Shown piece by piece: positions 103 to 49,543 of a stretch of 49,628 nt of DNA. A program made the translations under genes and the position numbers. Each line of letters begins with the position of its first letter. Position 1 is the first letter of the stretch. This DNA is from Escherichia phage JMPW1, in the sequence record NC_041874.1. One strand, 5' to 3'. Below the pieces are notes generated by a model. The model had not been told where the DNA came from, ran no database searches, and worked only from the letters and a program-made list of their open reading frames with translations.

Positions 103-121
103 TTTTAGCAAAAAGTGCTAT
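103..121 (-). promoter_or_regulatory. Conserved box, minus orientation (reads ATAGCACTTTTTGCTAAAA on - strand), at left genome end
   Basis: Plus-strand TTTTAGCAAAAAGTGCTAT matches the box family found at about 25 gene boundaries. Confidence 0.4.
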
Positions 122-524: not shown

Positions 525-1040
525 ATGAGCAATACCAATCAGGAATTAAAAATCACCGATATGATTCGACTAACCTGCGATGCAATGTATCGCGACAAAG
601 GCATGAATGAGTTCTCTTTCGTGGCTGATGATATGGCCCTCGAGGCCGCGCGATTCTACTTCCGTGACCAGGAGGTAAGTGATAGCGATCTTGAATCTGC
701 CGCTGCCGGATGGGTGGACCAGAACCAGGGTGAGGTGGAGAAGCGATTCAAGTCTGCTTTCATTACGCCAATCATTACCCGGCACTTTTGCAAGTATGGC
801 AAGGTGGCAAAGGTGAAGGTAGGCCGGAATGACGCTGCAATCACAATGATAACGGTTATCGTTACCGACGAAGAGATTCCCGTGAAGAAGCGCCGCAGTC
901 GGAAGAAAGTTAGCCTGGCCGATTGCCTGGATTCGTTTGTGGTTGATGTGGGTAAACTGGCTGATAGCGAATTGATGACTCGTGACGTAAACGAGATCGT
1001 TCGCCAGATGAAGGCGCATATCGAAAAGTGTGGACTGTAA
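525..1040 (+). CDS. hypothetical early protein (171 aa)
   Basis: ORF with RBS AAAGAGGA 9 nt upstream of ATG; first gene after left control region. Confidence 0.6.
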   Translation: MSNTNQELKITDMIRLTCDAMYRDKGMNEFSFVADDMALEAARFYFRDQEVSDSDLESAAAGWVDQNQGEVEKRFKSAFITPIITRHFCKYGKVAKVKVGRNDAAITMITVIVTDEEIPVKKRRSRKKVSLADCLDSFVVDVGKLADSELMTRDVNEIVRQMKAHIEKCGL

Positions 1041-1054
1041 GCACTGAGCGGTAA

Positions 1055-1104
1055 ATAGCACTTTTTGTTAAAACCGGATCGGGATAACGCGGTATAGTTA
1101 TCCC
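1055..1104 (+). promoter_or_regulatory. Early promoter cassette: box + inverted repeat GGGATAAC/GTTATCCC enclosing -10 TATAGT
   Basis: Box ATAGCACTTTTTGTTAAAAC at 1055-1074; IR 1081-1104; -10 at 1093-1098. Confidence 0.6.
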
Positions 1105-1129
1105 ATCAACAACGAATGAGAAAACGAAG

Positions 1130-1324
1130 ATGGAAACGCAAATTGACGTAGTGGTTGTTCAGCGAGACTCAACTCATGAAAAGGGTCTGTTTAAGAAGGG
1201 AACGGAAATCACGATCGACCTTGAGGATATGGTTGCTTATCACTCTGGACTTACCTGGAACGTGGTGCGCGTAGGCAGCGACTATAAACTCAAAGGCTTT
1301 AACACTTACTTTGCAGAGGCTTAA
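1130..1324 (+). CDS. hypothetical small protein (64 aa)
   Basis: ORF downstream of cassette with RBS GAGAAAACGAAG. Confidence 0.5.
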   Translation: METQIDVVVVQRDSTHEKGLFKKGTEITIDLEDMVAYHSGLTWNVVRVGSDYKLKGFNTYFAEA

Positions 1325-1326
1325 TC

Positions 1327-1797
1327 ATGACAACCATTACCGTATTTCTGGCTAAAGATGAGATTGATGGCGAAATGTCATTCTTCGCATTTGAGCACAA
1401 AACCGGATCGCACTGGCATATGTATAGCCGCTACACGGTTATCGATATCAACTCATACCGCGCAGGCTCACTTACTGAAAAGCTGGGTTGCTTCATTGGA
1501 GCTATCAAGGTGAACAATGGCTGCGAGTGGGCAGATGAGCACGAAGAGCGCCGCATGTGCAATATGATTAACCCGGTCTATCTTGAGTCGTTCGAGCTTG
1601 ATGCTGATGTGAACATTAAGGTGAGAAAGTCTGGTGAGTTATTGCCAGGGATGCGTGTGCTGACTGGTTACTCGGGCCGTAAGGTGTGGCGCACCGTATC
1701 GAAGATTCGCCAGCGTTCTGCAACATGCTACAGCGTATTCTTTGAAGATGGCTGGAATATGATGTCCGGTAGTGAGGTGAAGTATCTCACCAAATAG
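1327..1797 (+). CDS. hypothetical protein (156 aa)
   Basis: ORF; its TAG stop is the TAG of the next box. Confidence 0.55.
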   Translation: MTTITVFLAKDEIDGEMSFFAFEHKTGSHWHMYSRYTVIDINSYRAGSLTEKLGCFIGAIKVNNGCEWADEHEERRMCNMINPVYLESFELDADVNIKVRKSGELLPGMRVLTGYSGRKVWRTVSKIRQRSATCYSVFFEDGWNMMSGSEVKYLTK

Positions 1798-1843
1798 CAC
1801 GAATTGTTAAAACCGGATCGGGGTATCTTGCTATAGTTACCCC
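1794..1843 (+). promoter_or_regulatory. Early promoter cassette: box + IR GGGGTA/TACCCC enclosing -10 TATAGT
   Basis: Box ATAGCACGAATTGTTAAAAC 1794-1813; IR 1820-1843; CCAATCAGAGGA RBS follows. Confidence 0.6.
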
Positions 1844-1875
1844 ATCGAAACGAGATACCAATCAGAGGAATAACC

Positions 1876-2106
1876 ATGTCAATCGTCAAGAACCAGCAAG
1901 CAATCGATTAAACCAATAACAACCGCTTTGCTATTTTCATCACATCGATAGGTCGCCGATTTGCAGTCAAAGCCGTTCCGGGTGGATACAAAACCTACAT
2001 GGAAGATAAAGGAAAGTGGGTGTGGTGCGAAAACCTTGCAAACTTCCTAGTCTGGAATGCAGACCTCCAGGGCTTTGATGATATCAGCACCTTAATTGAG
2101 GAATAA
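1876..2106 (+). pseudogene. Small gene with in-frame TAA at codon 12 (1909-1911); frame continues open to 2106
   Basis: ATG 1876 sits behind a full cassette and RBS; same frame reopens after TAA and runs to TAA at 2104-2106. Confidence 0.3.
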
Positions 2107-2112
2107 ATAATT

Positions 2113-2340
2113 ATGCCACGTTACAATAAACAGACTAAACTCACCCGCGTAAACGGGCACATGATTCCGGCTGAATCCACTCACTACGCAATGGGCGCAA
2201 AGCACGGAGTCTATTTCAAGTGGCGCGGTCAATGGAACTTCACGGCGGTTAGTAATTTCTACATGCGCGTCCCAGGTATTGACCCGCAGACGGTCGTAGA
2301 GGACTCAATCGGCAACAACAAGATCGAGGTGCTAAAATGA
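2113..2340 (+). CDS. hypothetical protein (75 aa)
   Basis: ORF with RBS GAGGAATAAATAATTATG. Confidence 0.5.
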   Translation: MPRYNKQTKLTRVNGHMIPAESTHYAMGAKHGVYFKWRGQWNFTAVSNFYMRVPGIDPQTVVEDSIGNNKIEVLK

Positions 2341-2447
2341 ACTTCAATACAATTGCTTTATGGTCTGCCGTCTGGTTCTTCTGTATGGGTCATGTCATGG
2401 TTGGAATCGTAGTTATGCTGCTACTGTGTGCGGGAGCGTTCGAATGA
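2337..2447 (+). CDS. putative small hydrophobic membrane peptide (36 aa)
   Basis: ATG overlaps upstream stop (ATGA); translation MNFNTIALWSAVWFFCMGHVMVGIVVMLLLCAGAFE is one TM-like segment. Confidence 0.35.
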   Translation: MNFNTIALWSAVWFFCMGHVMVGIVVMLLLCAGAFE

Positions 2448-2617
2448 TGCGCATTCTGATTTGCATGATGGCGGCGGTCGCACTGGCTATCCTGGTAGTG
2501 TCCGGCTGCGGAGAGGCCAAAGAGCGATGCCATGAAACCGGAAACCAGGTTACTACTTTCGTGATGGTTGGCAACGTATTGCTACCAATCACATCAAATG
2601 AAATCACTTGCGAATAG
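2444..2617 (+). CDS. putative small lipoprotein (57 aa)
   Basis: Signal-peptide-like N-terminus ending in lipobox LVVSGC; start overlaps stop of preceding peptide. Confidence 0.4.
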   Translation: MMRILICMMAAVALAILVVSGCGEAKERCHETGNQVTTFVMVGNVLLPITSNEITCE

Positions 2618-2626
2618 GATGTTAAA

Positions 2627-2818
2627 ATGGCTGATTTTATGCACCAAATGATTGCAGTATTCAAAGGTAGTGATGACCAGGAGGTGAAAGAGTGCTTTAC
2701 TGTAGACAAGCCTTATAGCGCATCGCTAACCAGCTTCGGGAATATCTCATTGCTTGATGATAACGGCGACCCCTGGGTATTCGACGAAGACACTGATTGC
2801 TTCGAAATTAAAGAATAG
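2627..2818 (+). CDS. small highly acidic protein (63 aa)
   Basis: ORF rich in D/E; stop TAG shared with next box. Confidence 0.5.
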   Translation: MADFMHQMIAVFKGSDDQEVKECFTVDKPYSASLTSFGNISLLDDNGDPWVFDEDTDCFEIKE

Positions 2819-2864
2819 CACTTTTTGTTAAAACTCAATATCGGGGTTGCGCTATAGTAACCCC
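2815..2864 (+). promoter_or_regulatory. Early promoter cassette: box + IR GGGGTT/AACCCC enclosing -10 TATAGT
   Basis: Box 2815-2834; IR 2843-2864; -10 2853-2858. Confidence 0.6.
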
Positions 2865-2889
2865 ATCGACAACAAACGAGGACACTAAC

Positions 2890-3378
2890 ATGAAAATCAA
2901 ATTGCTTTGCACTGGCGGTTACAAGGGCTTTACTCGCGACCTGGAAGCGGATCCTATCGTGATTGATGCGGTGAAGTGTGATGATAGCCTCGGCGGCTAC
3001 CGCGTGAAGGTTGACGACCTGGTGAAAGCTGGCGTGTACGATCTGGGCTATGGACTTTCGGTTAGCCCGGTAGTTGGTCCGGCAGACTTCAACGAGAAGG
3101 ATGGAACGATGTTCTTCTTCGAATGGGAAGTCCAGGCAAATCCTAAGCCGCGCAAGGTTCGTCTTCTCAGTAATGGCGGCTACCCGATGCGTCCAGGTTA
3201 TGAGAATCGCACATTCCCGGTTATCGTTGACTTTGAAGAAATCACCGCACACTTAGCTTATATCAACGGTGAACAGCTTCATGCTGTTGGATTCGTGGGA
3301 TGTATGAATCAAGAGGCGCTATGCTTCTTCCATTGTAAAGCCGAGCCGTTCGATATTGAGTGCGAGTTAGTATACTAA
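2890..3378 (+). CDS. hypothetical protein (162 aa)
   Basis: ORF after cassette; stop TAA is first codon of next box (TAAGCAC). Confidence 0.55.
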   Translation: MKIKLLCTGGYKGFTRDLEADPIVIDAVKCDDSLGGYRVKVDDLVKAGVYDLGYGLSVSPVVGPADFNEKDGTMFFFEWEVQANPKPRKVRLLSNGGYPMRPGYENRTFPVIVDFEEITAHLAYINGEQLHAVGFVGCMNQEALCFFHCKAEPFDIECELVY

Positions 3379-3423
3379 GCACGAATTGTTAAAAGGGGAT
3401 TTGGCCTGACTGGTATAATCCCC
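3376..3423 (+). promoter_or_regulatory. Early promoter cassette: box + IR GGGGAT/ATCCCC enclosing -10 TATAAT
   Basis: Box TAAGCACGAATTGTTAAAA 3376-3394; IR 3395-3423; -10 3414-3419. Confidence 0.6.
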
Positions 3424-3449
3424 GCATAAACCACTAAGAGGAAAGCATC

Positions 3450-3956
3450 ATGTTAAAATTAGAAGACGTAAAATTCCCGATTAAATTTATCAGCCTAGGT
3501 TGCGGTGAAATTACATTCACCAGTGAAGATAAAGGCAAGTGGGACAATGATAAAATGTCTCAGCTTAAGTTGGATTGGTTTATCAATCGGCACAATGAAG
3601 TAAATCCTGAAAACTCAGCCAAGAAGGATTACCATTACATTATTAGTGGTAGTCAGGATGCGTACGAAAAGTATGATGGTTGGAAAATTGTTCGATCAAT
3701 CTTCCACCCCGCAAAGCCAGAAATTAAACCGATGTTACAATGCGCTCAGATCGAGAACATTCCATTGAGCGCGACGCTAAAAGGAGTGCAGCTTGATGAT
3801 AAATCCTGGCTTGAAATAACCGCCACGCCGAAAACTATTGAAGTGCACGACGATATCGTCACTCTTCTATTGCATTACGGCAGCTTTAAGCACAAAGCGG
3901 TATCAGGTGAAATCAGCATTAAGCGCGGAACACTTGTGCGCTATGAGGTGAAATAA
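3450..3956 (+). CDS. hypothetical protein (168 aa)
   Basis: ORF with RBS AAGAGGAAAG. Confidence 0.55.
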   Translation: MLKLEDVKFPIKFISLGCGEITFTSEDKGKWDNDKMSQLKLDWFINRHNEVNPENSAKKDYHYIISGSQDAYEKYDGWKIVRSIFHPAKPEIKPMLQCAQIENIPLSATLKGVQLDDKSWLEITATPKTIEVHDDIVTLLLHYGSFKHKAVSGEISIKRGTLVRYEVK

Positions 3957-4101
3957 TGGCTGCATGGGTTTTGATTATCTTAATGAGTACCGGGCCGGAT
4001 CACGTATACATGGAAAGTCAGCAATCATGAAACAAGGTACGGGAAGTAATTGCAGAGAATAAGCCGTTCGGATATGAAGTAAAAACGATGTGCGTTAAAC
4101 G

Positions 4102-4151
4102 ATAGCACGAATTGCTAAACCTTCCGCAAGGCCATTTGATATAGTGGCCTT
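4102..4151 (+). promoter_or_regulatory. Early promoter cassette: box + IR AAGGCCA/TGGCCTT enclosing extended -10 TGATATAGT
   Basis: Box 4102-4120; IR 4128-4151; -10 4140-4145 preceded by TG. Confidence 0.6.
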
Positions 4152-4185
4152 ATTGAAGCAAGGCAACCAATCAGAGGAATCAGCT

Positions 4186-4392
4186 ATGGCTACACGACTA
4201 ACTCAGTGGCAGATTTACGACAAGGCCTCACGCCTTCGTGAATCGCTTCGCGGACTGACGCCGAATGACCGAATGGAGATTATCGGGCACGCATTGCACG
4301 AACTAACATCTCAGGACGTAATCTATCATTCATGCGGCAATAAATTCTGGAACGTGACATTCGAGGTAAAGAAAGATGAGCAAAACTCATAA
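4186..4392 (+). CDS. hypothetical protein (68 aa)
   Basis: Start placed at ATG 4186 after CCAATCAGAGGA motif; the upstream ATG 4144 lies inside the promoter hairpin. Confidence 0.45.
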   Translation: MATRLTQWQIYDKASRLRESLRGLTPNDRMEIIGHALHELTSQDVIYHSCGNKFWNVTFEVKKDEQNS

Positions 4393-4663
4393 GTTAAAAA
4401 TCGCCCCGATACATTTCATTGGTGTAATGAACGGAACCAAAACGGCAGAGTTCCGCATCAATGACCGCAACTTCCAGGTTGGTGATATCCTTGAGCTACG
4501 CGAGTTCGATCGTGACGACTTTACCGGGTGGGAAGTTCACGCCAGGGTGTCCGATGTTACAGACGTGACGCCATACATCAATCGCGGTTATGACGAGCAA
4601 GAATGCGACTTCACGCAATACGTGATGTTATCAATCAAGCCTTACAGGAAGGTTAGACCATGA
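4376..4663 (+). CDS. ASCH/DUF3850-like (PUA-fold) small protein (95 aa)
   Basis: Motif GTKTAEFRINDRNFQVGD recalled as typical of DUF3850/ASCH proteins. Confidence 0.4.
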   Translation: MSKTHKLKIAPIHFIGVMNGTKTAEFRINDRNFQVGDILELREFDRDDFTGWEVHARVSDVTDVTPYINRGYDEQECDFTQYVMLSIKPYRKVRP

Positions 4664-5298
4664 AATTTGAGTGCGTATCAAGTAGCGGATCTGGTTTTAA
4701 GTGGGGAAAAACTTACAAAGGTGTTCGCGTAAATGATGACAGCTTCATCATTACTGATGAGAACGGTTGCAACGTGAACGTTGTACGGCGTCACGAATAT
4801 CAGGAAATTTTCCTGCCTTATGGCGGTAGCTCAAAATATATCTTCCATCGAATCGTGGATGGTGTTAAATTTAACGACGTAATCGAAGCAATCAACCAAC
4901 TGCATAATAAAGAGGTAAAATTTATGAAATTCGAATGTATCAGCGACAACACTAAAAAATTTACCGTTGGAAAAATTTACAACGTTCCTTCTGAGCACGC
5001 TAAGCACACTTTAGCGCTGACCGACGACACAGGCTGCCAACGCATTGCAACCGTGACGCACAATGGCGAAGGTCTTCGCTGGAACAGCGGCGGCACTAAG
5101 TTCGCAACTTTCGGTAAGAAGCGCAAGCGCAATTTCCGCGTCAACGGCAAGATCAACACCAGCAAGATTAGCAACGTCAAGCCTATTAATGTTGACCACA
5201 AGCCAGAGCTTGATCTTAAAGGCAAGGTGGATATTCCTGATATGGCTTTAGCGATCCTTATTCTTGTTGCTCTAATTTCTATCATGCTCATCATGTAA
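4660..5298 (+). CDS. tandem-domain protein with C-terminal TM anchor (212 aa)
   Basis: Two internal repeats both starting MKFEC..; hydrophobic C-terminus; member of dispersed paralog family. Confidence 0.55.
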   Translation: MKFECVSSSGSGFKWGKTYKGVRVNDDSFIITDENGCNVNVVRRHEYQEIFLPYGGSSKYIFHRIVDGVKFNDVIEAINQLHNKEVKFMKFECISDNTKKFTVGKIYNVPSEHAKHTLALTDDTGCQRIATVTHNGEGLRWNSGGTKFATFGKKRKRNFRVNGKINTSKISNVKPINVDHKPELDLKGKVDIPDMALAILILVALISIMLIM

Positions 5299-5305
5299 TT
5301 TTAAC

Positions 5306-5339
5306 GGGGAATTGGCTCTGAGCGGTTCCCCTTTCTTTT
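5306..5339 (+). terminator. putative intrinsic terminator
   Basis: Stem GGGGAA/TTCCCC followed by TTTCTTTT. Confidence 0.4.
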
Positions 5340-5446
5340 GGAGAAAACACTATGCCAGACTTTTCTAACTGGAATAACGAGCCGCCATCATTTCAGGAGT
5401 TGCTATTCTGCCTCCTGGTCCTGACATTATCTCTTAAGGGTGTTTT

Positions 5447-5665
5447 ATGGCTACTATCATAACAGCAGAAGATGCAGCACGCGACGCAGTGGAAGGAATG
5501 CGCCCAAATACCTCCAGAATAGCACACTACTACAAATCTGAGGTGTCGGCAGTGCAATTGGTCAACGAAATTTTAAGGCTACCACAAGTCGATTCAGCGC
5601 GCGTGGTGACGTGCTTAAAAAATTATTTTTGCATCGCTATTAAAACGAATAGCACGAATTGCTAA
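5447..5665 (+). CDS. hypothetical protein (72 aa)
   Basis: ORF; stop TAA lies inside next box. Confidence 0.3.
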   Translation: MATIITAEDAARDAVEGMRPNTSRIAHYYKSEVSAVQLVNEILRLPQVDSARVVTCLKNYFCIAIKTNSTNC

Positions 5666-5696
5666 AACCTATCAAGGGGAATGCGCTATGATTCCC
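5649..5696 (+). promoter_or_regulatory. Early promoter cassette: box + IR GGGAAT/ATTCCC enclosing -10 TATGAT
   Basis: Box 5649-5668; IR 5677-5696. Confidence 0.55.
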
Positions 5697-5722
5697 ATGC
5701 ACCAACAAACGAGGAAGCACTC

Positions 5723-6169
5723 ATGAAACACTTAATTTGCATTGAAACGCCTAACGACCAGTACACCCTGCACGGCATTGGAATGTTCAAAGGTCACTAC
5801 ATGACAGCAAGTATTCATGATTCGCGTTGCGTCAATGGCGATCTGATGATTACGTCAAAAGAAGTAACTCCGTACATTATGCAGAATCTTGGCAATAACG
5901 AATATATGGCCTACGGATGCAATGCGGTGTACAAGCATATCAAGATCAGAAAACGCGTTGTTCGCGCATTCAAGAAAATTGCAATGAAACAATGGAAGAT
6001 GAGCAAGAAAGATGCTGGACGCTGGGCGCGTAACGTTGCAGATTCATACTTCTACCGTAACGGTGAGTCCTGCCACTTCCTTATCGATGAACTTATGGAA
6101 AACTACGGCGGCGACTTCAGTCAGGGTGGCTTTGACGCTTGGGCTGACTACGAGGTCGATTACTGGTAA
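5723..6169 (+). CDS. hypothetical protein (148 aa)
   Basis: Start placed at ATG 5723 after RBS GAGGAAG; upstream ATG 5681 lies in promoter hairpin. Confidence 0.5.
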   Translation: MKHLICIETPNDQYTLHGIGMFKGHYMTASIHDSRCVNGDLMITSKEVTPYIMQNLGNNEYMAYGCNAVYKHIKIRKRVVRAFKKIAMKQWKMSKKDAGRWARNVADSYFYRNGESCHFLIDELMENYGGDFSQGGFDAWADYEVDYW

Positions 6170-6218
6170 TAGCACGAATTGCTAAAACTTGCTCAAGGGC
6201 ATTTGATAGAATGCCCTT
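6169..6218 (+). promoter_or_regulatory. Early promoter cassette: box + IR AAGGGCA/TGCCCTT enclosing extended -10 TGATAGAAT
   Basis: Box 6169-6188; IR 6195-6218; -10 6207-6212; CCAATCAGAGGA RBS follows. Confidence 0.6.
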
Positions 6219-6252
6219 CGTTGAGTTAAGCAACCAATCAGAGGAATAAATC

Positions 6253-6864
6253 ATGGATAAAATTACCATTTGGGGCCAGACAATCAACCTGTTTCTCGGC
6301 ACGCGCCGCGTAGCAATCTTTGACTTTGATGGAACACTTAGCGATGGATCTGGTCGACTTCACCTGCTACCTACAAAGGATTTGCACTTAACTGAAAGCT
6401 GGTCCGAGTTTAACCGCGCGGCAATATTTGACAACCCTATCCAAAGCACGATCGATGTGATGAACTCTATGTATGCCGCTGGTCATCATGTGATCATTTT
6501 AACCGGGCGAAGTGATGAGGTGCGTTACGCATCTGAGTTGTGGCTTAAGCATCACGGCGCTCGATATGATTACCTGATTATGCGACCATACACCGATAAC
6601 CGGAAAGACACAGTAATGAAAGAAGAGGCGGTGCGCGCGATCGGCATTGATAACATTCTGGCGGCCTGGGATGACTCACCGCAAATTATTCCATTATTCC
6701 GCTCACTTGGAATAACCACTTACGCTGTAGTTGACTATGGCGATAAAGTTCACGATCATTTAAAATCTCACGGGGTAGATGAGGTTTGCAATCATGAACC
6801 ATCTGAGCCGCTACCGCCATTTGGTGAGAAAATTTGCATTAAGTGCAAGGAGTTATTGAAGTGA
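6253..6864 (+). CDS. HAD-superfamily phosphatase (nucleotidase-like) with C-terminal CxxC
   Basis: HAD motif I FDFDGTL near N-terminus; later ILTGRSD and WDDS motifs. Confidence 0.6.
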   Translation: MDKITIWGQTINLFLGTRRVAIFDFDGTLSDGSGRLHLLPTKDLHLTESWSEFNRAAIFDNPIQSTIDVMNSMYAAGHHVIILTGRSDEVRYASELWLKHHGARYDYLIMRPYTDNRKDTVMKEEAVRAIGIDNILAAWDDSPQIIPLFRSLGITTYAVVDYGDKVHDHLKSHGVDEVCNHEPSEPLPPFGEKICIKCKELLK

Positions 6865-6972
6865 ACCTATACGAATTTATTGCAGCACATCCGGTACTAA
6901 CAGTTATCATTCTGTTAATCATAAACTCCACCATCATCAATGTGGCGAAATTATTTTTAGGGAGATACTGAC

Positions 6973-7545
6973 ATGAAAACAGCTATCATTTTAAACGGTG
7001 CGCCTGGCGCGGGAAAAGACACTATAGGGTGCATCCTGGCTGACACTTACGATCATGTAGCGCTACGCAGCTTTAAAGCTCCAATGTTTGAGATTGCCCG
7101 AGCAATCCTGGGTGAGACTAATTTTGAGTATTTCATGTTCTTGTATGAGGACCGTCGCTATAAAGAAGAGCCAGCATCAATCCTGAACGGTAAAAGCCCG
7201 CGCCAGTTTATGATCTGGATTAGCGAGGAGGTTATCAAGCCGCAGTTCGGAAATCGCTTCTTCGGTATGCGAGCGGAAAGCAAGGTGAAAGAGTCTCACT
7301 CCCTTTCGGTATTTACTGACGGTGGATTCAAAGACGAAATCTTGCAGATGATTGAAGGTGAAATCCAGGTCAAGCTATGTCGAATCCATCGCAACGGTTG
7401 CAACTTTGACAACGACAGTCGCGACTACATCTATCTTGACGATATGATCGGGGTCAACGGTTATCAGGAATGTGACTTCTTCTCTGTCGAAGGTCATCCA
7501 GAAATTACCGCTCAGCACATAGCCGCCACGTTCATCAACAAATAG
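6973..7545 (+). CDS. P-loop kinase, deoxynucleoside monophosphate kinase-like
   Basis: Walker A GAPGAGKDT and LNGKSP motif resembling phage T4 gp1 dNMP kinase (from memory). Confidence 0.55.
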   Translation: MKTAIILNGAPGAGKDTIGCILADTYDHVALRSFKAPMFEIARAILGETNFEYFMFLYEDRRYKEEPASILNGKSPRQFMIWISEEVIKPQFGNRFFGMRAESKVKESHSLSVFTDGGFKDEILQMIEGEIQVKLCRIHRNGCNFDNDSRDYIYLDDMIGVNGYQECDFFSVEGHPEITAQHIAATFINK

Positions 7546-7589
7546 CACGAATTGCTAAAACGTCGGTGGGGTGACTTGATATAGTTACC
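7542..7589 (+). promoter_or_regulatory. Early promoter cassette: box + imperfect IR enclosing extended -10 TGATATAGT
   Basis: Box 7542-7561; IR about 7568-7589; -10 7580-7585. Confidence 0.55.
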
Positions 7590-7617
7590 TCATCGACAAC
7601 GAAGAGAGAAAATCGAA

Positions 7618-7827
7618 ATGATGGTATCAACTGATAAGTTTTTCACTTGCACTAAAACTTCTGAAGTATTCGAACTGGTTCATACTGATAATGGTGACTT
7701 CATGCATGACGGTTGCGACGTTTTCATTGAAGTGAAAGAAAGCGACTATGACTATGGGGTTTATTATAACCCGGCAGTGAACACTCAGTTTTTTACACCG
7801 ATCGAAGAGGAAGGAGAAGAAGCATGA
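7618..7827 (+). CDS. small acidic protein (69 aa)
   Basis: ORF after cassette. Confidence 0.5.
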   Translation: MMVSTDKFFTCTKTSEVFELVHTDNGDFMHDGCDVFIEVKESDYDYGVYYNPAVNTQFFTPIEEEGEEA

Positions 7828-8168
7828 TCACGATTAACCTGTCAGATAAACAAGCGCGTGAAATCCTCGATACTATCGGCGAACAGCTTCACGTAAAAGT
7901 CGCTACCGCTGAGATTCTTAACCAGATCGAAAGACAGCTAACCCCGGTGTCGACGAATCAGGCTGAGTTCTCAATCTGGAAAAGCGAGCGAATCCTGCCA
8001 AATATCATCAAGGCATGGAAGCGCAAGAATAAAAAAGAAATCAATGTTGATGACTTATTTTCTGATGAATTAAGTCCTTCAAAGGTTGCTCAATATCAGT
8101 TGCGATACATGGAATCAGTTTGCAATCAGGTTTTAAATGTCAACTTTTCATTCGGGAGTGGTAAATAA
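7824..8168 (+). CDS. hypothetical protein (114 aa)
   Basis: ORF overlapping upstream stop (ATGA). Confidence 0.5.
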   Translation: MITINLSDKQAREILDTIGEQLHVKVATAEILNQIERQLTPVSTNQAEFSIWKSERILPNIIKAWKRKNKKEINVDDLFSDELSPSKVAQYQLRYMESVCNQVLNVNFSFGSGK

Positions 8169-8398
8169 TGTTTGGTTTAAGTGAAGCGGAATGGAACGTG
8201 GTAAAGCGCGCGGCGAAGGAATTGAATAAATTCGTTAGCGGAATGAAGAAAGAAGATCGCAAAAACGAAAAGATTATGATTGATGTGATCTCAACTCATC
8301 ACAAAAAGGTTGAGCTACTCATCGACCGCTACAAGTTTGTATGGACCGCCGGATATATTGCAGGGCGCGTAGGTAACAAAGAGGGTGATTACGAATAA
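8168..8398 (+). CDS. hypothetical protein (76 aa)
   Basis: ORF, translationally coupled (TAATG). Confidence 0.5.
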   Translation: MFGLSEAEWNVVKRAAKELNKFVSGMKKEDRKNEKIMIDVISTHHKKVELLIDRYKFVWTAGYIAGRVGNKEGDYE

Positions 8399-8601
8399 TG
8401 GCTAACTTACCGAAGAAAGGCGATCAGGTTCGATGTGTTACATCACGCAATGGTGATGCTTTCTCAGCGGGATGCTTGTATGACGTTGAAAAAGTAAGTA
8501 AAGCAAAGAGACTCGTATTTGTATACGGAGACGATGGAAATATTCATGAGATTGACTACCCGCAGGATATTACTAATGGCCAATTTGAAATTAATGATTG
8601 A
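8398..8601 (+). CDS. small paralog-family protein (67 aa)
   Basis: ORF; shares K..C..F.VG..Y.V...DDG pattern with other small genes. Confidence 0.5.
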   Translation: MANLPKKGDQVRCVTSRNGDAFSAGCLYDVEKVSKAKRLVFVYGDDGNIHEIDYPQDITNGQFEIND

Positions 8602-8765
8602 CCTGAATCTCTGAGCGGTGATAGTATTAATCCCGTAGACAGACGAGGCGCAAATAAGCGCAACGCGTGAGACGATTCTCACACTTCCAGCTAACAAGCT
8701 CGGTTGCATAGTGGTTAAGCAACGCCGCAGACCCGTAAGCGGCAACAATTCAAGAGGATTGCATA

Positions 8766-8927
8766 ATGCAAAAAACTAAAGACGAATCAGTCAAAATTGA
8801 AATTAAAGTAACTCGCAACGGTGAAACCACTAGTTATAAAAAACGATTAAATCCTGGCGAGGCTGTTATTGGTCGCATTGCTGGCGTTATGATTAAGGCG
8901 CAGGAAGATGAAGCGATTCAAAGTTAA
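8766..8927 (+). CDS. hypothetical small protein (53 aa)
   Basis: ATG 8766 preceded by AAGAGGA; below the 60-aa cutoff of the ORF track. Confidence 0.4.
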   Translation: MQKTKDESVKIEIKVTRNGETTSYKKRLNPGEAVIGRIAGVMIKAQEDEAIQS

Positions 8928-8943
8928 ATTAATTATTCGAAAG

Positions 8944-9093
8944 ATGGGAATGTTTTGCCAGTCGTGCAAGCAATCTTTCGAAACTGAATTATCAGCAACC
9001 AGTCAGGATGAAGCCATCACGAAAGCAAAAAAACTTTCCGGCGCTAACCTTGACACTCACAAAATAAATATTGAATTAATCAAGGAGATTTAA
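8944..9093 (+). CDS. hypothetical small protein (about 49 aa, start uncertain)
   Basis: ORF 8908-9093 trimmed to first ATG after upstream stop. Confidence 0.3.
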   Translation: MGMFCQSCKQSFETELSATSQDEAITKAKKLSGANLDTHKINIELIKEI

Positions 9094-9094
9094 C

Positions 9095-9322
9095 ATGACA
9101 ATTTTTTTATTGATTATCGCTGGTGTCATTATTTTTGGTGCTGGTTTGTTTGCTGGCTTCGCACTTGTGGCGGCAGCAATTGCGATGGACGCGAAGGATA
9201 AAACTGGTGTATGGCTGACCTACTCGCCTAAGAAGGATCAATGGGAAATGACTGGCGACCTTGCTCACTGCTACTCTAAAGCTCAGACCCACCCTAAAGG
9301 CATTAAACGACGATTATCGTGA
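9095..9322 (+). CDS. small membrane protein (75 aa)
   Basis: Strong RBS AAGGAG; N-terminal hydrophobic segment IFLLIIAGVIIFGAGLFAGFALVAAAIA. Confidence 0.55.
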   Translation: MTIFLLIIAGVIIFGAGLFAGFALVAAAIAMDAKDKTGVWLTYSPKKDQWEMTGDLAHCYSKAQTHPKGIKRRLS

Positions 9323-9354: not shown

Positions 9355-9372
9355 TGCCTGCAATATGGTAAA

Positions 9373-9391
9373 ATAGCACTAAATGTTAAAC
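9373..9391 (+). promoter_or_regulatory. Box (late-type context: no hairpin, immediately upstream of RBS)
   Basis: ATAGCACTAAATGTTAAAC preceded by -10-like TAAAAT. Confidence 0.45.
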
Positions 9392-9406
9392 AAAGAGGAT
9401 GGATTT

Positions 9407-16061: not shown

Positions 16062-16081
16062 CATAAAAACACTTTGACGCT

Positions 16082-16132
16082 TTAACAAAAAGTGCTATTA
16101 TTGAAGCCGTGAACATAATCACGGCTTTTTTA
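16082..16132 (+). promoter_or_regulatory. Reverse-orientation box + IR AGCCGTGA/TCACGGCT enclosing CATAAT, followed by T-run (promoter/terminator composite before capsid gene)
   Basis: TTAACAAAAAGTGCTAT 16082-16098; hairpin 16105-16126; T6 16126-16131. Confidence 0.5.
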
Positions 16133-19805: not shown

Positions 19806-19843
19806 TCTGTAAAATCATCCTATCAACTCTATTCACTTAACTT

Positions 19844-19860
19844 TTAACAAAAAGTGCTAT
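19844..19860 (+). promoter_or_regulatory. Reverse-orientation box in leader of tail chaperone gene
   Basis: TTAACAAAAAGTGCTAT, then CCAATCAGGAGA RBS. Confidence 0.45.
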
Positions 19861-25838: not shown

Positions 25839-25861
25839 CTGTATAATGAGTCCACCGATAA

Positions 25862-25880
25862 ATAGCACAAAAAGGTAAAC
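25862..25880 (+). promoter_or_regulatory. Box variant in leader of central fibre gene (downstream of -10 TATAAT 25842-25847)
   Basis: ATAGCACAAAAAGGTAAAC directly before ATG 25884. Confidence 0.4.
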
Positions 25881-25883
25881 ATC

Positions 25884-32181: not shown

Positions 32182-32255
32182 ACGGCACAAATAGCTAAAC
32201 AAATAATTAATGAGGTGTTATAATGCACCTCATACACCAATCAGGAGAAGTTAAG

Positions 32256-35263: not shown

Positions 35264-35301
35264 ATAGCACTAATTGCTAAACGCTGATTTTATCATTGTG
35301 C
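35264..35301 (-). promoter_or_regulatory. Box in leader of tail fibre gene
   Basis: ATAGCACTAATTGCTAAAC 35264-35282 plus GTGCTAT at 35295-35301; minus-strand -10-like GATAAAAT. Confidence 0.45.
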
Positions 35302-36279: not shown

Positions 36280-36340
36280 TTCCAGATCTCCAAAATAAAA
36301 AACGCGTAGAAGGATGTTAACCCGCTACGCGTCGTTTGTT

Positions 36341-36793
36341 TTAACTAAAAATGCTATTGGTCGTTCCGATATCTTCCTTCTTCACGACGCGCATAAATTT
36401 CTTGTTCTTGCATCGCTTCTCAAGGCACTTGCCGTTACCGTCAAACTTCAGGTCGAATCGCAACCATGCGGCACGAAATCCTTTGCACCCCTGTCGGCGG
36501 TAAGCGCGATGCGCAGCTTCAGCGCCTTGCCATGAAATCATATTTCGATCTTTCCAGCCTTGCACCGTCTGATTGCTAACTTTTAGAGCCTTTGCGCAGG
36601 CCGCAGGGCCGCCGTAATATTCGATAAGAGCATCAAGTCGCGCTCGCAGTCCGGCGCGTGTTTCTTCTTTATGAATATAGAACCCGCAACGCTGTCGAGG
36701 CTTTTTATCTTTACCGCGCCGTGTTCCGTTGTTACCATTGATGTGACGTTTATCGATTTTACCAGTTGATTCTGCGATACGTTGAATACTCAT
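36341..36793 (-). CDS. putative helix-turn-helix DNA-binding regulator
   Basis: HTH-like AACAKALKVSNQTVQGWKD; basic protein in divergent replication control region. Confidence 0.4.
   Translation of the reverse strand: MSIQRIAESTGKIDKRHINGNNGTRRGKDKKPRQRCGFYIHKEETRAGLRARLDALIEYYGGPAACAKALKVSNQTVQGWKDRNMISWQGAEAAHRAYRRQGCKGFRAAWLRFDLKFDGNGKCLEKRCKNKKFMRVVKKEDIGTTNSIFS
36342..36358 (-). promoter_or_regulatory. Box, minus orientation, upstream of primase
   Basis: Plus-strand TTAACTAAAAATGCTAT; overlaps stop of regulator gene. Confidence 0.4.
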
Positions 36794-36805: not shown

Positions 36806-36861
36806 ATAGCACTTTTTGCTAAAAACGTTTACTTTATGCCGTGTATTATAGCGTAAACGTT
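36806..36861 (+). promoter_or_regulatory. Promoter cassette for helicase operon: box + IR AACGTTTAC/GTAAACGTT
   Basis: Box 36806-36825; IR arms 36824-36832 and 36853-36861 enclosing TATTAT. Confidence 0.55.
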
Positions 36862-36886
36862 ACAACGATTCAAAGGATTAATAGCC

Positions 36887-38905: not shown

Positions 38906-39318
38906 TTACAGACAAAGGTGATTATTTAGAGTTTTACGAGCGAGATCCCAGCGACACTCGAAAGGAGGACGCTCATCAGGTGGATTGTGTGTCCTGGCTG
39001 AAATACAATTTCCCTCACCTTCTATTTTGGCACACTGTCAATGAAGGTGAAAAAACAATCACATCAGCGCTCAGGGATGAGCAGGCCGGATTACTTAAAG
39101 GAGTGTCGGACTTCGTTATCCTGATTGGTGTTAACTCAAGATACCCGTTTGCAGCAATCGAACTTAAGCGGGTTAATAAGTCAGGCAAAGGAAAGGCGTC
39201 ACCAGTCAGCGACAAGCAAAGGGAATTTCTCAGAAAGGTCATGGAGCGTGGCGGCTTCTCTGCCGTCGCATACGGATTTGAGCAATTCAAGATCGCAATT
39301 TACGAAATGATGAAATAG
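38902..39318 (+). CDS. VRR-NUC domain nuclease
   Basis: D...ELK signature VSDFVILIGVN...AIELK. Confidence 0.55.
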   Translation: MITDKGDYLEFYERDPSDTRKEDAHQVDCVSWLKYNFPHLLFWHTVNEGEKTITSALRDEQAGLLKGVSDFVILIGVNSRYPFAAIELKRVNKSGKGKASPVSDKQREFLRKVMERGGFSAVAYGFEQFKIAIYEMMK

Positions 39319-39370
39319 CACTTTTTGTTAAAACTGCCGGAATGGAATCTGGCATTATTATCTCACCAAC
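39315..39370 (+). promoter_or_regulatory. Promoter cassette: box + IR
   Basis: Box ATAGCACTTTTTGTTAAAAC 39315-39334; IR about 39335-39354; TAG stop of VRR-NUC gene inside box. Confidence 0.5.
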
Positions 39371-39385
39371 ACTAGAGGACTAAAA

Positions 39386-40099: not shown

Positions 40100-40347
40100 T
40101 GAACGAGAAAATGATTCCGGTTAAGTTAACTGATCAAGGTTTATGGCTGCTTTATCGAGCTACCTGCTGCGAAATTATGGAGCGAAACGGATTGACTCAG
40201 GATGTTATTGGTTGCGATCTGTGGGAGTTCACTAGTTCTCTTGATATGTCTTTCGATGAGATAAAAAATGAATACATAGAGAATTGGCCTTCAATCATAC
40301 AGAAAGACGTGGAAGAACTTAAAGCTGATACAATCGTACAGCACTAA
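40096..40347 (+). CDS. hypothetical protein (83 aa)
   Basis: Overlapping start; stop TAA embedded in next box. Confidence 0.5.
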   Translation: MMNEKMIPVKLTDQGLWLLYRATCCEIMERNGLTQDVIGCDLWEFTSSLDMSFDEIKNEYIENWPSIIQKDVEELKADTIVQH

Positions 40348-40381
40348 TTGCTAAAAATACCCGACGAAAGTCGGGTATAGT
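40338..40381 (+). promoter_or_regulatory. Promoter cassette: box + perfect hairpin ACCCGAC-GAAA-GTCGGGT + -10 TATAGT
   Basis: Box 40338-40357; IR 40359-40376; -10 40376-40381. Confidence 0.6.
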
Positions 40382-40413
40382 TATTTCATAGAAACGAAAT
40401 GAGGAATCAGAAG

Positions 40414-41183: not shown

Positions 41184-42335
41184 ATGTCACAAGCTAAAAT
41201 CACTACCGAGCAACTTGTCGAAGAGCGCATGAACGGCCTTACACTTCGCGAGATCGCGGAAAAGTACGGTATGCATATTCGAACTGTTGAGGCTCGACAC
41301 GCAAAATTGGCAAAAGAAGGCCACTTTCACGGCAATGAGCATGTTGCTAAAAACGTTCCTGAAGGCTTCATGGTAAAAGGCACATCAACAATGATTCGCG
41401 GTGATGGGACTGAGGTCGTGCGATGGGTTAAGACCGATCAGGACCGTGAGAAGATTGCAGCTATGATGGAAGCTGCACGCATTGCATTTTGTGAAGACTT
41501 GCCGCGAGCAAAGCCAACTGAGCTGCTCACATCGCAAGGTCTTACAACCTCTATTGGAAAGCTGGCACTATACCCGGTGTTCGATCTTCACATTGGCGCG
41601 CTTGCTCATAAGCATGAATGTGGAGAGAACTACTCTACCGACGTAGCGGAAAAAGTGCTTAGCGACTTCTTTAATTACGCGATCGATATTGCTCCGAACG
41701 CAGAGAAGGCCGTTCTTTTAATCGGCGGTGACTTCCTTCACTCGGACGGTCTTGATGCTGTTACCCCGGCAAGTGGTCACGTTCTGGATCAGGATTCACG
41801 ATATGCAAAATTGGTGCATGTAGCTATTAGATCTGTTCGTCGCGCTATCGACAAAATGCTACTGAAACACAAAGAAGTCGAGGTCCAGGTTATCGAAGGG
41901 AACCACGATCAGTCTGGGATGATTTGGCTGCGCGCTGCAATGTCGGCATATTATGAAGACGAGCCGCGAGTATTCGTTGACGTTAGTCCTATGATTCTGC
42001 ATAAGACTCGTTGGGGAAATACCTTGTTGGGATACACTCACGGGCACACTATGAAAAAGGCAGAGACTCGACTCGCAGCTATGGCAGCAGATTTCCGCGC
42101 AGATTTTGGTGAAAGCAAATACGTGTACACGCATAGCGGTCACTGGCATCACCAGACAATCACTGAGCACTCACTCGGTATTGATGAGGTTCACGGCCAG
42201 TTAGGCGCGAAAGACGCATACGCAGCACGAGGAGGGTGGCGCTCGTATCGCCAGGCGGCTGTAATTGTTTACGATAAGCAATTTGGGGAAATCGGTCGTT
42301 TCATCTATCGTCCAGAAATGACAGGATCGCACTAA
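41184..42335 (+). CDS. HTH-fused calcineurin-like metallophosphoesterase
   Basis: N-terminal HTH-like LTLREIAEKYGMHIRTVEARH; phosphoesterase motifs FDLH, GGDFLHSD, GNHD, GHWHH. Confidence 0.65.
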   Translation: MSQAKITTEQLVEERMNGLTLREIAEKYGMHIRTVEARHAKLAKEGHFHGNEHVAKNVPEGFMVKGTSTMIRGDGTEVVRWVKTDQDREKIAAMMEAARIAFCEDLPRAKPTELLTSQGLTTSIGKLALYPVFDLHIGALAHKHECGENYSTDVAEKVLSDFFNYAIDIAPNAEKAVLLIGGDFLHSDGLDAVTPASGHVLDQDSRYAKLVHVAIRSVRRAIDKMLLKHKEVEVQVIEGNHDQSGMIWLRAAMSAYYEDEPRVFVDVSPMILHKTRWGNTLLGYTHGHTMKKAETRLAAMAADFRADFGESKYVYTHSGHWHHQTITEHSLGIDEVHGQLGAKDAYAARGGWRSYRQAAVIVYDKQFGEIGRFIYRPEMTGSH

Positions 42336-42369
42336 TTGATAAAAACTCCCGAAGGGATTCGGGCATAGT
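42326..42369 (+). promoter_or_regulatory. Promoter cassette: box variant + IR CCCGAA/TTCGGG + -10 CATAGT
   Basis: Stop TAA of upstream gene inside box; IR 42348-42363. Confidence 0.5.
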
Positions 42370-42398
42370 AACCACATCGAAAACAAAGAGGCTATATC

Positions 42399-45900: not shown

Positions 45901-45920
45901 CACAATAAACTCCTTAGTTG

Positions 45921-45974
45921 ACGGTGTGAATGATACACCGCCAATGGTACACGCGTTTTGCAAAAAGTGCTATT
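45921..45974 (-). promoter_or_regulatory. Promoter cassette, minus strand: box + IR CGGTGT/ACACCG
   Basis: Minus-strand box ATAGCACTTTTTGCAAAA (plus 45957-45974); hairpin plus 45921-45945. Confidence 0.5.
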
Positions 45975-46393: not shown

Positions 46394-46409
46394 GGCGCTA
46401 GCTCCTGAT

Positions 46410-46473
46410 TGGTTATCTTGAATAAGGCCACTTTATCAAATGACCTTACGGCAATATTAACAAATCGTGCTAT
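46410..46473 (-). promoter_or_regulatory. Promoter cassette, minus strand: box + IR
   Basis: Minus-strand ATAGCACGATTTGTTAA (plus 46455-46473); IR AAGGTCA/TGGCCTT. Confidence 0.5.
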
Positions 46474-46911: not shown

Positions 46912-46972
46912 TTTTAATTCCTTTGTTTCGTTTGGTGTGGGAGTAATATACCTTACCCCCTATTGTATGTCT

Positions 46973-46990
46973 TTAGCAATTCGTGCTATC
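46973..46990 (-). promoter_or_regulatory. Box, minus orientation
   Basis: Plus-strand TTTAGCAATTCGTGCTAT is reverse complement of ATAGCACGAATTGCTAAA. Confidence 0.5.
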
Positions 46991-48030: not shown

Positions 48031-48055
48031 GATTATTTCCTCGTTTGCTGCTGAT

Positions 48056-48105
48056 GGGATGACTATACCAGCCATCCCGGATGCGCGTTTAGCAAAAAGT
48101 GCTAT
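48056..48105 (-). promoter_or_regulatory. Promoter cassette, minus strand: box + IR GGGATG/CATCCC enclosing extended -10 TGGTATAGT
   Basis: Plus-strand TTAGCAAAAAGTGCTAT 48089-48105; hairpin 48056-48078. Confidence 0.6.
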
Positions 48106-48492: not shown

Positions 48493-48509
48493 TTTGTTTT
48501 TCCTCAATC

Positions 48510-48570
48510 TCGTTTCGATGAGGTAATTATGCCAAATCGCACCGATCGAGTTTTAACAAAAAGTGCTATT
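48510..48570 (-). promoter_or_regulatory. Promoter cassette, minus strand
   Basis: Plus-strand TTAACAAAAAGTGCTAT 48554-48570; minus-strand -10-like CATAAT downstream. Confidence 0.45.
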
Positions 48571-49466: not shown

Positions 49467-49524
49467 TGCCTGAGTCCTCTGATTGGTTGATGTGATGAAT
49501 CATACCCTGCCGACCTGGCTGAGT

Positions 49525-49543
49525 CGTTAGCAAAAAATGCTAT
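49525..49543 (-). promoter_or_regulatory. Box, minus orientation, upstream of right-hand minus-strand block
   Basis: Plus-strand TTAGCAAAAAATGCTAT. Confidence 0.5.

Follow-up and report, generated by a model that had tools for sequence, protein, structure and literature searches.

A marbox-like box, a fixed -10 element and a variable inverted repeat make up a repeated gene-boundary cassette in the T1-like Escherichia phage JMPW1

What is the 20-bp box that recurs at gene boundaries in the genome of Escherichia phage JMPW1 (NC_041874.1), and what is the role of the inverted repeat that follows it with arms that differ from copy to copy? Eight such copies are found on the plus strand between positions 1055 and 7589 of the window, that is, of the whole stretch of 49,628 nucleotides analysed here. 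The window represents the complete genome of a T1-like phage (49.6 kb, family Drexlerviridae). Its first 8 kb display 99.9% identity to Enterobacteria phage vB_EcoS_IME167 and 88-92% identity to many Tunavirus genomes (Escherichia, Shigella), and the assignment to a T1-like siphovirus made in an earlier note on this DNA is thus borne out. The order of the genes is that of T1, with the structural genes in the centre, the recombination and replication genes at 31000-42000, and small early genes of unknown function at 525-9300 (plus strand) and 44000-49500 (minus strand). Nine of ten early proteins belong to PHROG families of unknown function, and the gene content of the early regions differs among relatives. 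The analysis reported here indicates that the repeated unit is a promoter-bearing gene-boundary cassette of about 75-95 bp, present in about 20 copies per genome, and that its box has the sequence and the position of a host marbox.

About 25 boxes were counted in the genome, where about one is expected by chance. The strict core TAGCA-N5-TGCTA gave 10 matches (0.05 expected) and a looser box pattern 33 matches (8.8 expected). Every position listed in the earlier note, on both strands, does carry a box, and seven further copies were detected (9373 on the plus strand, 16079-16098 and 19841-19860 on the minus strand, 25862, 32182 and 35264 on the plus strand, and 36338-36357 on the minus strand). 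A box scan of IMG/VR yielded a collection of 218 unique cassettes located on T1-like contigs, among them those of TLS, Rtp and Shfl1, so that the box is not confined to JMPW1. Within this collection the invariant positions of the box include A3, T11 and T12, as well as C7 and G13, and the right half reads TTGCTA in 60% of cassettes and TTGTTA in 39%. The box had been presented as a palindrome; it is so only in part, and is better called asymmetric and dependent on direction. No second phage group with the cassette was found in IMG/VR, where all matches with a correctly spaced -10 were fragments of T1-like contigs; isolated matches of the box outside these contigs are chance.

The element was already described, which the earlier note did not mention. 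The same box is the "21-nt direct repeat" aaATAGCACnnnTTGnTAAAA of phage TLS, stated to be present also in T1, Rtp and Rogue1 (PMC11447400, 2024). In TLS it occurs in about 18-21 copies, which are intergenic, co-directional with transcription and placed about 76 nt before start codons, and it is divided into three subtypes (TTT, GAA and AAA/TAA), with the highest conservation at ATAGCAC and at TAAAA. The JMPW1 box shows the same consensus aaATAGCACnnnTTGnTAAAA, the same intergenic position, the same direction as the genes and the same three subtypes, and is therefore the same element. The TLS authors treat the function as an open question and propose stoperators, enhancer sites or UP elements; they found only three sigma-70 promoters in the TLS genome. 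The accessible text of their paper does not describe a fixed -10, a covarying hairpin, or a link with marboxes or with gene shuffling.

Aligning the JMPW1 copies on the box revealed a -10-like hexamer (TATAGT, TATAAT, TAGAAT, CATAAT and similar forms), which in almost every copy begins exactly 22 bp downstream of TTGyTA. Among the 218 cassettes, 193 have the hexamer at this exact distance, which is 18 bp past the end of the box, and no other distance occurs more than 28 times. Position -14 is a G in 88% of these cassettes and position -15 a T in 47%, and the full TGn motif is present in only about half. The base located 7 nt after the hexamer is an A in 87%, preceded by a C in 72%. Numbered from the transcription start inferred at this A, the box ends at -31, the hexamer starts at -12 and the centre of the box is at about -40.5; the consensus at -36 to -30 is TAAAAc. 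A -35 hexamer at 16-18 bp from the -10 was not seen, and the cassettes were not called by a standard sigma-70 scan. The 19 promoter-type cassettes all face the downstream gene. The fixed -10 and this direction agree with the earlier proposal of a promoter-bearing cassette at gene boundaries. That proposal placed TGnTATAGT in each copy; the hexamer is indeed at a fixed distance, but its sequence varies and the full TGn is found in about half of the copies only.

From left to right, a cassette is composed of the stop codon of the upstream gene, the 20-bp box, 18 bp left free, the -10, a C-rich discriminator, the A of the putative start, and a short, conserved leader with a Shine-Dalgarno sequence (SD). 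Judged from the sequence, starts are placed at 1105, 1844, 2865, 3426, 4152 and 7592. As had been claimed, upstream open reading frames (ORFs) end inside the box or at its edge in many copies (1797, 2818, 3378, 5665, 6169, 7545 and 48553). Some gene calls deserve a remark: first-ATG ORF calls (32223 vs 32256, 48075 vs 48030, 9383 vs 9407) begin inside the promoter or the box, as does the T1 annotation of the Erf-like gene, and the conserved leader and SD favour the later start codons.

Several known sites were compared with the box and rejected. A sigma-54 site (TGGCAC-N5-TTGC) is spaced differently and needs the GG. The sites of OxyR, Nac, IHF and Fis, the lambda cII repeat and the T4 MotA box, judged by eye, fit neither by sequence nor by position. 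A cruciform that would shorten the 22-bp spacer, so that TTGyTA could serve as a -35, is impossible by geometry.

The best match is found in the host. In E. coli, the activators MarA, SoxS and Rob bind at sites of the marbox/soxbox consensus AYNGCACNNWNNRYYAAAYN, whose recognition elements are GCAC and YAAA (PMC2064960, PMC3709825). Scanning the JMPW1 genome with AYNGCACNNWNNRYYAAAYN and at most one mismatch recovered 21 sites (1.19 expected), five of them perfect, and all of them are the boxes. The box fits the consensus at 13-14 of the 14 specified positions. Positions of the consensus that the collection pattern had left free are also respected, W10 in 218 and Y14 in 216 of the 218 cassettes. 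The phage box ATAGCACTTTTTGCTAAAAC resembles the micF box (ACAGCACTGAATGTCAAAAC) and the mar box (ATGCCACGTTTTGCTAAATC) of E. coli K-12 and is nearer to the marbox consensus than either. The two conservation peaks noticed by the TLS authors correspond to the two marbox recognition elements. The earlier idea of a phage-specific palindromic signal finds no support: the box is asymmetric and depends on direction, and it matches the consensus of a host site with class II geometry.

In class II marbox promoters a forward box lies over the -35 position, centred near -41/-41.5, there is no recognisable -35, and the activator contacts and displaces sigma region 4 (PMC10268841, PMC12052159, PMC9638938). 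The forward box of micF in E. coli K-12 ends 18 bp before the -10 TAGAAT, and the weaker forward box of E. coli inaA ends 18 bp before the -10 TATAGT; the host comparison of the 18-bp gap rests on these two promoters, fumC lacking a mapped start. The phage cassettes share with micF, inaA and fumC the 20-bp asymmetric forward box with GCAC and YAAA, and with micF and inaA the 18 bp to the -10, the centre near -41 and the absence of a usable -35; with inaA they also share TATAGT. They differ from these host promoters in having boxes nearer to the consensus, at about 20 per 50 kb, and in overlaying a hairpin on the spacer and discriminator of a unit that is fused to an upstream stop codon and to a standard downstream leader. 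At the level of sequence, the cassettes thus have the layout of class II MarA/SoxS/Rob promoters, with each of the defining features present (forward orientation, box over the -35 position near -41, no -35). Regarding the host sites, the fumC marbox, a perfect match to the consensus, lies directly after the fumA terminator in the fumA-fumC intergenic region of E. coli: there the terminator precedes the box, and in the phage the hairpin follows it.

No homologue of MarA was detected among the phage proteins (best E value 1.7), so any such factor would be that of the host. All named hosts of phages with this region are Enterobacterales. Bacteria of this order carry MarA/SoxS/Rob regulators; Rob is the abundant constitutive member, and RamA is the counterpart in Klebsiella and Salmonella. 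We consider it probable that the early and replication genes of the phage are driven through a host activator of the MarA/SoxS/Rob type at these marbox-like boxes. The host RNA polymerase would be recruited via this stress activator, a single monomer of which, at about -41, would replace the contact of sigma-70 region 4 with a -35; the extended -10 would give a basal level without activator. Both the binding by MarA, SoxS or Rob and the start sites are inferred here.

The cassettes and boxes of the window are as follows (dG, folding free energy; UTR, untranslated region).

1055..1129 (+): cassette; box 1055-1074 (ATAGCACTTTTTGTTAAAAC), -10 TATAGT 1093-1098, putative start A 1105, hairpin 1077-1107 (dG -14.5, z -3.7), then 5' UTR with SD and ATG at 1130.
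1794..1875 (+): cassette; box 1794-1813 with the stop TAG of the upstream ORF (1797), TGc-TATAGT 1832-1837, putative start ~1844, hairpin 1816-1846.
2815..2889 (+): cassette; box 2815-2834, -10 TATAGT 2853-2858, putative start ~2865, hairpin 2843-2864; left edge of T1 homology; phi2457T and Shfl1 have a gene inserted at its 3' end.
3376..3449 (+): cassette; degenerate box 3376-3395 (TAAGCAC..., deviating from the marbox consensus at 3 positions), TGg-TATAAT 3414-3419, hairpin 3395-3423 directly adjoining the box.
4102..4185 (+): cassette; box 4102-4121 (no mismatch to the marbox consensus), TGa-TATAGT 4140-4145, hairpin 4121-4158; the 742-bp module on its right is absent from T1, with the breakpoint within the cassette.
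5649..5722 (+): cassette; box 5649-5668, -10 TATGAT 5687-5692, weak hairpin 5677-5696 (dG -8.4, z -1.2).
6169..6252 (+): cassette; box 6169-6188, TGa-TAGAAT 6207-6212, hairpin 6191-6226; a gene of ~200 bp is inserted between cassette and pnk in SA30RD, Shfl1 and contig L039.
7542..7617 (+): cassette; box 7542-7561, TGa-TATAGT 7580-7585, putative start ~7592, 15-pair hairpin 7562-7597 (dG -24.7, z -8.0).
32182..32255 (+): cassette upstream of the Erf-like gene; box 32182-32201 (ACGGCAC..., no mismatch to the marbox consensus), TATAAT 32219-32224 (17-bp gap), hairpin 32210-32233.
36806..36886 (+): cassette before a helicase gene.
39315..39385 (+): cassette; spacer-only hairpin 39335-39354, -10 CATTAT 39353-39358.
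40338..40413 (+): cassette; spacer-only hairpin ACCCGAC-GAAA-GTCGGGT (40357-40378) ending at the -10 TATAGT; in T1 the counterpart bears the annotation of a rho-independent terminator.
42326..42398 (+): cassette; spacer-only hairpin, -10 CATAGT; an HNH endonuclease gene is inserted here in T1.
45904..45973 (-): cassette before a helicase gene; box 45973-45954, -10 TATCAT 45935-45930; an HNH gene lies at its edge in T1.
46394..46473 (-): cassette; box 46473-46454 (2 mismatches), TGa-TAAAGT, hairpin 46454-46418.
46912..46989 (-): cassette; box 46989-46970, -10 TATATT (19-bp gap), hairpin 46960-46939.
48031..48105 (-): cassette; box 48105-48086 (no mismatch to the marbox consensus), TGg-TATAGT 48067-48062, hairpin 48084-48050; on one side it bounds both the 445-bp module missing in contig L104 and the 1380-bp module missing in T1.
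48493..48569 (-): cassette; box and -10 CATAAT, no convincing hairpin (unlike its orthologues in contigs L033 and L049); opposite boundary of the 445-bp module missing in L104.
49467..49543 (-): cassette; degenerate box (ATAGCAT..., 3 mismatches), -10 TATGAT; opposite boundary of the 1380-bp module missing in T1.
36280..36357 (-): box 36357-36338, which holds the stop codon of the regulator gene, followed by an intrinsic terminator hairpin with a T-run (36333-36301) and then by the primase gene.
9373..9392 (+): box without -10 at 18 bp; overlaps TGgTAAAAT 9367-9375, after terminator 9331-9355 and before terS; kept in T1.
25862..25881 (+): box without -10 at 18 bp; after a terminator and TGTATAAT (~25838-25845), 3 nt before the ATG of the 1139-aa tail gene; kept in T1.
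35264..35283 (+): box without -10 at 18 bp; on the minus strand just downstream of TGaTAAAAT (~35297-35289) and upstream of the tail-fibre start 35243; kept in T1.
16079..16098 (-): late-region box, antisense to the capsid genes, adjoining a terminator, without -10 at 18 bp; kept in T1.
19841..19860 (-): late-region box, antisense to the tail genes; TGa-TAGGAT follows at 18 bp, no hairpin.
103..121 (-): box without -10 at 18 bp, bordering the large AT-rich non-coding region; kept in T1.

The second component of the cassette is the inverted repeat. Folding energies of the eight copies in 1055-7589 range from -8.4 to -24.7 kcal/mol; z scores of -2.3 to -8.0 were obtained for six of them, and five were not matched by any of 200 dinucleotide shuffles. 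As the registers of the arms differ between copies (pair sums of -25 and -23, and spacer-only forms), covariation was assessed by an arm-swap permutation test. Cognate arms pair at -9.7 kcal/mol and arms swapped between copies at -5.2 kcal/mol, a difference reached in none of 20000 permutations (p<5e-5), and the result was repeated on 83 mutually dissimilar cassettes from many phages. A value of -10 kcal/mol or lower is observed in 75% of 194 cassettes vs 5% of shuffles. Comparison of orthologous cassettes, defined by the same downstream gene, reveals one-sided changes from G-C to G-U that keep the pairing, a compensatory change from G-C to T-A in the LeonhardEuler orthologue of cassette 2815, and the replacement of both arms with pairing kept in cassette 1055 (GGGATAAC/GTTATCCC vs GATGCGC/GCGCATC). 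These results uphold the view that selection acts on the structure and not on its sequence. The accompanying statement that the arms always pair is true of most copies; a good hairpin is missing or weak in 35 of the 194 cassettes (about 18%), here at 48569, 49543 and 19860 on the minus strand.

About three quarters of the cassettes that fold have the 3' arm in the discriminator (-9 to -1, in some cases as far as +5) and enclose the -10, as the earlier note had it for all; in about a quarter, represented here by 39315, 40338 and 42326, the hairpin is wholly contained in the spacer and ends at -12. The loop measures 4-13 nt, and the stem varies in length and position. A class II promoter leaves two stretches largely free, namely the spacer (from -30 to -13) and the discriminator (from -6 to -1), and it is these that the arms occupy, so that the structure can be overlaid without disturbing the promoter. 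Local transcripts would start at or after the 3' arm, and the hairpin can thus exist only in RNA coming from upstream or in DNA. In the main class the 8 nt after the stem contain 1.0 T on average, with at least five T in 1% of cassettes; this absence of a U-tract led us to reject a canonical rho-independent terminator for this class. The spacer-only class is more terminator-like, with at least five T in 24% and the T-rich -10 following the stem. The cassette hairpins were not called by the terminator scan, with the exception of 36333-36301, a genuine intrinsic terminator, and some GenBank records label these hairpins as rho-independent terminators. Our best guess, and the most likely role, is that of an insulator between adjacent cassettes: in upstream-derived RNA the hairpin would attenuate transcription or protect 3' ends. 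Such a role was shown experimentally for one stem-loop of the promoter-early-stem-loop (PeSL) cassettes in phage RB49 (PMC2839356, PMC4122927).

The cassettes are also the places where the early regions of related phages differ. Relatives were compared for insertions and deletions (T1, LeonhardEuler, phi2457T, SA30RD, Shfl1 and IMG/VR contigs), and the 13 clean indels found in the early regions each have a breakpoint in a cassette; by a rough count, cassettes represent about 10% of these regions and roughly a third of the gene junctions. Genes are inserted between a cassette and its former downstream gene at 2889 and 6250, and between the upstream stop and the box at 1041/1053. The T1 homing-endonuclease genes of the HNH type, ST15 (42028-42510) and ST8 (46085-46624), are absent from JMPW1, and their insertion points (JMPW1 42320-42362 and 45974-45979) coincide with the cassettes 42326 (plus strand) and 45973 (minus strand). 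The 1380-bp module 48106-49486, which contains four genes including a Dcm-like methylase, is flanked by the cassettes 48105 and 49543; at this place T1 has just one cassette, a chimera whose crossover maps close to the start site. Likewise, the 445-bp module 48107-48552 is flanked by the cassettes 48105 and 48569 and is replaced in contig L104 by a single chimeric cassette with the crossover inside the box ATAGCACTTTTTG. LeonhardEuler and contig L085 have different DNA in the same slot between the same two cassettes. The genes of the shuffled modules have no known function. These breakpoints, and the replacement of two cassettes by one chimera in T1 and L104, are what the earlier comparison with gene-shuffling cassettes of T4-type phages would predict. 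The about 20 near-identical cassettes would serve as portable homology for the insertion, deletion and exchange of genes, which would move together with a ready promoter and ribosome site. The 212-aa gene 4660-5298 seems to start twice (ATGAAATTTGAGTGCGTATCAAG at 4660, ATGAAATTCGAATGTATCAGCG at 4924), which suggests a tandem duplication, and the T1 deletion breakpoint 4912 falls at the junction.

The resemblance to the PeSLs of T4-type phages, suggested before, is supported by the anatomy and by the cassette-bounded indels. A PeSL combines an early promoter with a stem-loop, which lies between the two promoter hexamers or overlaps the -10, and closes with SD and ATG at its 3' end (PMC2839356, PMC4122927). 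Both elements are small repeated gene-boundary cassettes in regions of small genes of unknown function; both combine an early promoter for the host polymerase with a stem-loop of G-run and C-run arms in this position and with SD and ATG on the 3' side; and in both, indels and swaps between close relatives are bounded by cassettes, with a single chimeric cassette at a deletion. Sequence and lineage are unrelated (T4-type myoviruses vs Drexlerviridae). PeSLs have an AT-rich tract and a real -35, and the box has no counterpart in them, whereas the JMPW1 cassettes have a marbox-like box with G and C bases and lack a -35 at 17 bp. For PeSLs, both terminator activity and the formation of mini-circles by recombination between cassettes have been demonstrated (PMC2839356, PMC4122927). 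The morons of lambdoid phages also carry a gene with its own promoter and terminator, but they have no shared flanks and are thought to move by illegitimate recombination, whereas the flanks in JMPW1 are a repeated element.

A number of observations weigh against a host activator acting at the box, an insulating hairpin and exchange through the cassettes. Position 19 of the box is an A in 76% of cassettes where the consensus has Y, although the micF box also has an A there. With A3, T11 and T12 invariant, the phage box allows less variation than the marbox consensus, a hint that something else may read the site as well. Unstressed laboratory cells contain little MarA and SoxS, and their Rob is largely inactive, yet T1 grows very well in them, and we know of no rob, marA or soxS phenotype for T1. 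A strict dependence on these activators is therefore doubtful, and the boxes may boost expression instead of gating it. Six or seven boxes are not followed by a usable -10; as such boxes are kept in T1, the box must have at least one role besides class II activation. As regards the hairpin, termination is not predicted for the main class, and about 18% of cassettes do without a good one. Finally, breakpoints at gene boundaries are partly expected for any modular exchange.

Other readers of the box have to be weighed against the host activator. The phage has only one annotated transcription regulator, encoded at 36341..36793 on the minus strand (T1 gp23 family, phrog_2856), and a dimer of this protein could bind TAGCA-N5-TGCTA as its operator and switch the early regulon off or on, the likeness to a marbox being then a coincidence or a sign of competition. 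Its gene is a core gene in 823 Drexlerviridae records; the protein has a helix-turn-helix with a predicted Cro-type fold (predicted local distance difference test, pLDDT, of 82), with Xfaso-1 Cro and N15 Cro as best matches (target template-modelling score about 0.72). A box sits in the divergent control region of the gene, downstream of a canonical TTGAAT-17-TATAAT reading into it, and the invariant A3 and T12, which a marbox does not demand, complete the palindrome. However, a dimer on a palindrome needs neither the fixed direction nor the exact 18 bp, both of which are kept; the right half is TGTTA and not TGCTA in 39% of cassettes; the conservation extends asymmetrically into TAAAAc; and the match to the marbox at 13-14 of 14 positions, together with the class II geometry, would be due to chance. 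Another repeat, TGTAAyA-N-TTGTCTA, which lies over canonical promoters, is at least an equal candidate for the operator, and we regard the box as a rather unlikely one. Less probable still is an UP-type element for the alpha C-terminal domains alone, or an atypical -35, with no transcription factor. The TLS authors raised the former option (PMC11447400), the A/T-rich centre and the TAAAA tail at -44 to -32 agree with it, and TTGnTA resembles TTGACA. The invariant G/C bases (GCAC, G13) are nevertheless a misfit to what is generally known of the UP consensus, TTGnTA at 22 bp from the -10 is beyond the reach of sigma region 4, and an UP element explains neither the exact marbox match nor the boxes without promoters. 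A site of host Lrp is very improbable: the outer ten positions of TAGCA-N5-TGCTA fit the consensus YAGHAWATTWTDCTR quoted in PMC5554404, but the centre matches poorly, the invariant C7, the TAAAAc tail and the dependence on direction are left unexplained, and the marbox match is far better.

The inverted repeat, too, has been read in other ways. It could act as DNA, a hairpin or cruciform aiding strand exchange between cassettes or tuning promoter opening. Crossovers do map within cassettes, the loop consists of the AT-rich -10 and would favour extrusion, and the main class, lacking a U-tract, makes a poor terminator. Against this, the two resolved crossovers are in the box and near the start site and not in the loop, the arms differ among cassettes so that the hairpin itself offers no homology, stems of 6-10 bp with loops of 6-10 nt generally extrude poorly, and the same evidence fits a role in RNA; we hold a function as DNA to be the main alternative for the repeat, at low probability. 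Hairpin promoters read by a phage polymerase, as in phage N4, were another analogy drawn in the earlier note; the two phages do share an inverted repeat that overlaps an early promoter. N4 depends on its own virion RNA polymerase, and its hairpin, with a 3-nt loop, is constant in size, sequence and position. In annotated T1-like genomes no RNA polymerase or sigma gene was found, the -10 is of the sigma-70 type at a fixed position, the stem, the loop (4-13 nt) and the position vary, and about 18% of cassettes have no hairpin, all of which leaves this analogy with almost no probability.

The repeat TGTAAyA-N-TTGTCTA(G) is present at 137-165, 147-162, 398-413, 30667-30689 and 30808-30842, in the AT-rich non-coding regions 100-520 and 30600-31110, in one case across a canonical TTGTCA-17-TAGAAT promoter; this repeat family is a candidate operator of the Cro-fold regulator, or may belong to an origin. 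Both large non-coding regions also share TATA-rich stretches that are nearly identical (TATATAGATA..., TATATAATATATATAG; 180-300 and 30750-30810). At 36794-36890, two promoters stand face to face, the TATTAT of the helicase cassette (plus strand) and a perfect TATAAT (minus strand) using the same bases; the minus-strand promoter TTGAAT-17-TATAAT reads through the box (at about +13 to +30) into the regulator gene. This arrangement resembles a small genetic switch.

Five boxes are without a -10 at 18 bp (9373, 25862, 35264, 16079 and 103), and all five are conserved in T1. Those at 9373, 25862 and 35264 lie right after intrinsic terminators and over or just downstream of TGn-type -10s that precede the terS, 1139-aa tail and tail-fibre genes, and a factor bound there would, to judge from this placement, repress rather than activate. 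A wider scheme can be built on these positions, to which we accord only a small likelihood. Almost the entire early and replication programme would be wired to the host Mar/Sox/Rob regulon through about 20 consensus class II marboxes, and the late genes would be held off by the same site. Replication would multiply the sites by hundreds and titrate a limited host activator, so that early promoters would go down and late ones up, a copy-number timer. The Cro-fold regulator would possibly compete for the boxes, and the phage genome would be a decoy disarming the host stress response.

In the open-access literature we found neither binding or expression data nor a mapping of transcripts or start sites for any T1-like phage, nor a paper linking marboxes, MarA or SoxS with these phages. 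Within that literature the composite architecture, the identity with class II marbox promoters and the PeSL-like shuffling appear new; the box itself is known but unexplained. The marbox reading supplies about 19 promoters at once in genomes where the TLS authors found almost none, and it makes the function of the TLS/T1 repeat testable with existing reagents. If it is true, common virulent coliphages and Klebsiella phages would couple their early expression to host regulators of the stress and antibiotic response, which would be relevant to phage-antibiotic combinations and to growth in the bile-rich gut, and these would be among the few lytic phages that rely on a borrowed host activator regulon and do not bring a factor of their own. 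Independently of the marbox reading, the cassettes extend PeSL-type shuffling from T4-type myoviruses to an unrelated siphovirus family, an argument for regarding repeated promoter cassettes as a general means by which phages exchange genes as modules.

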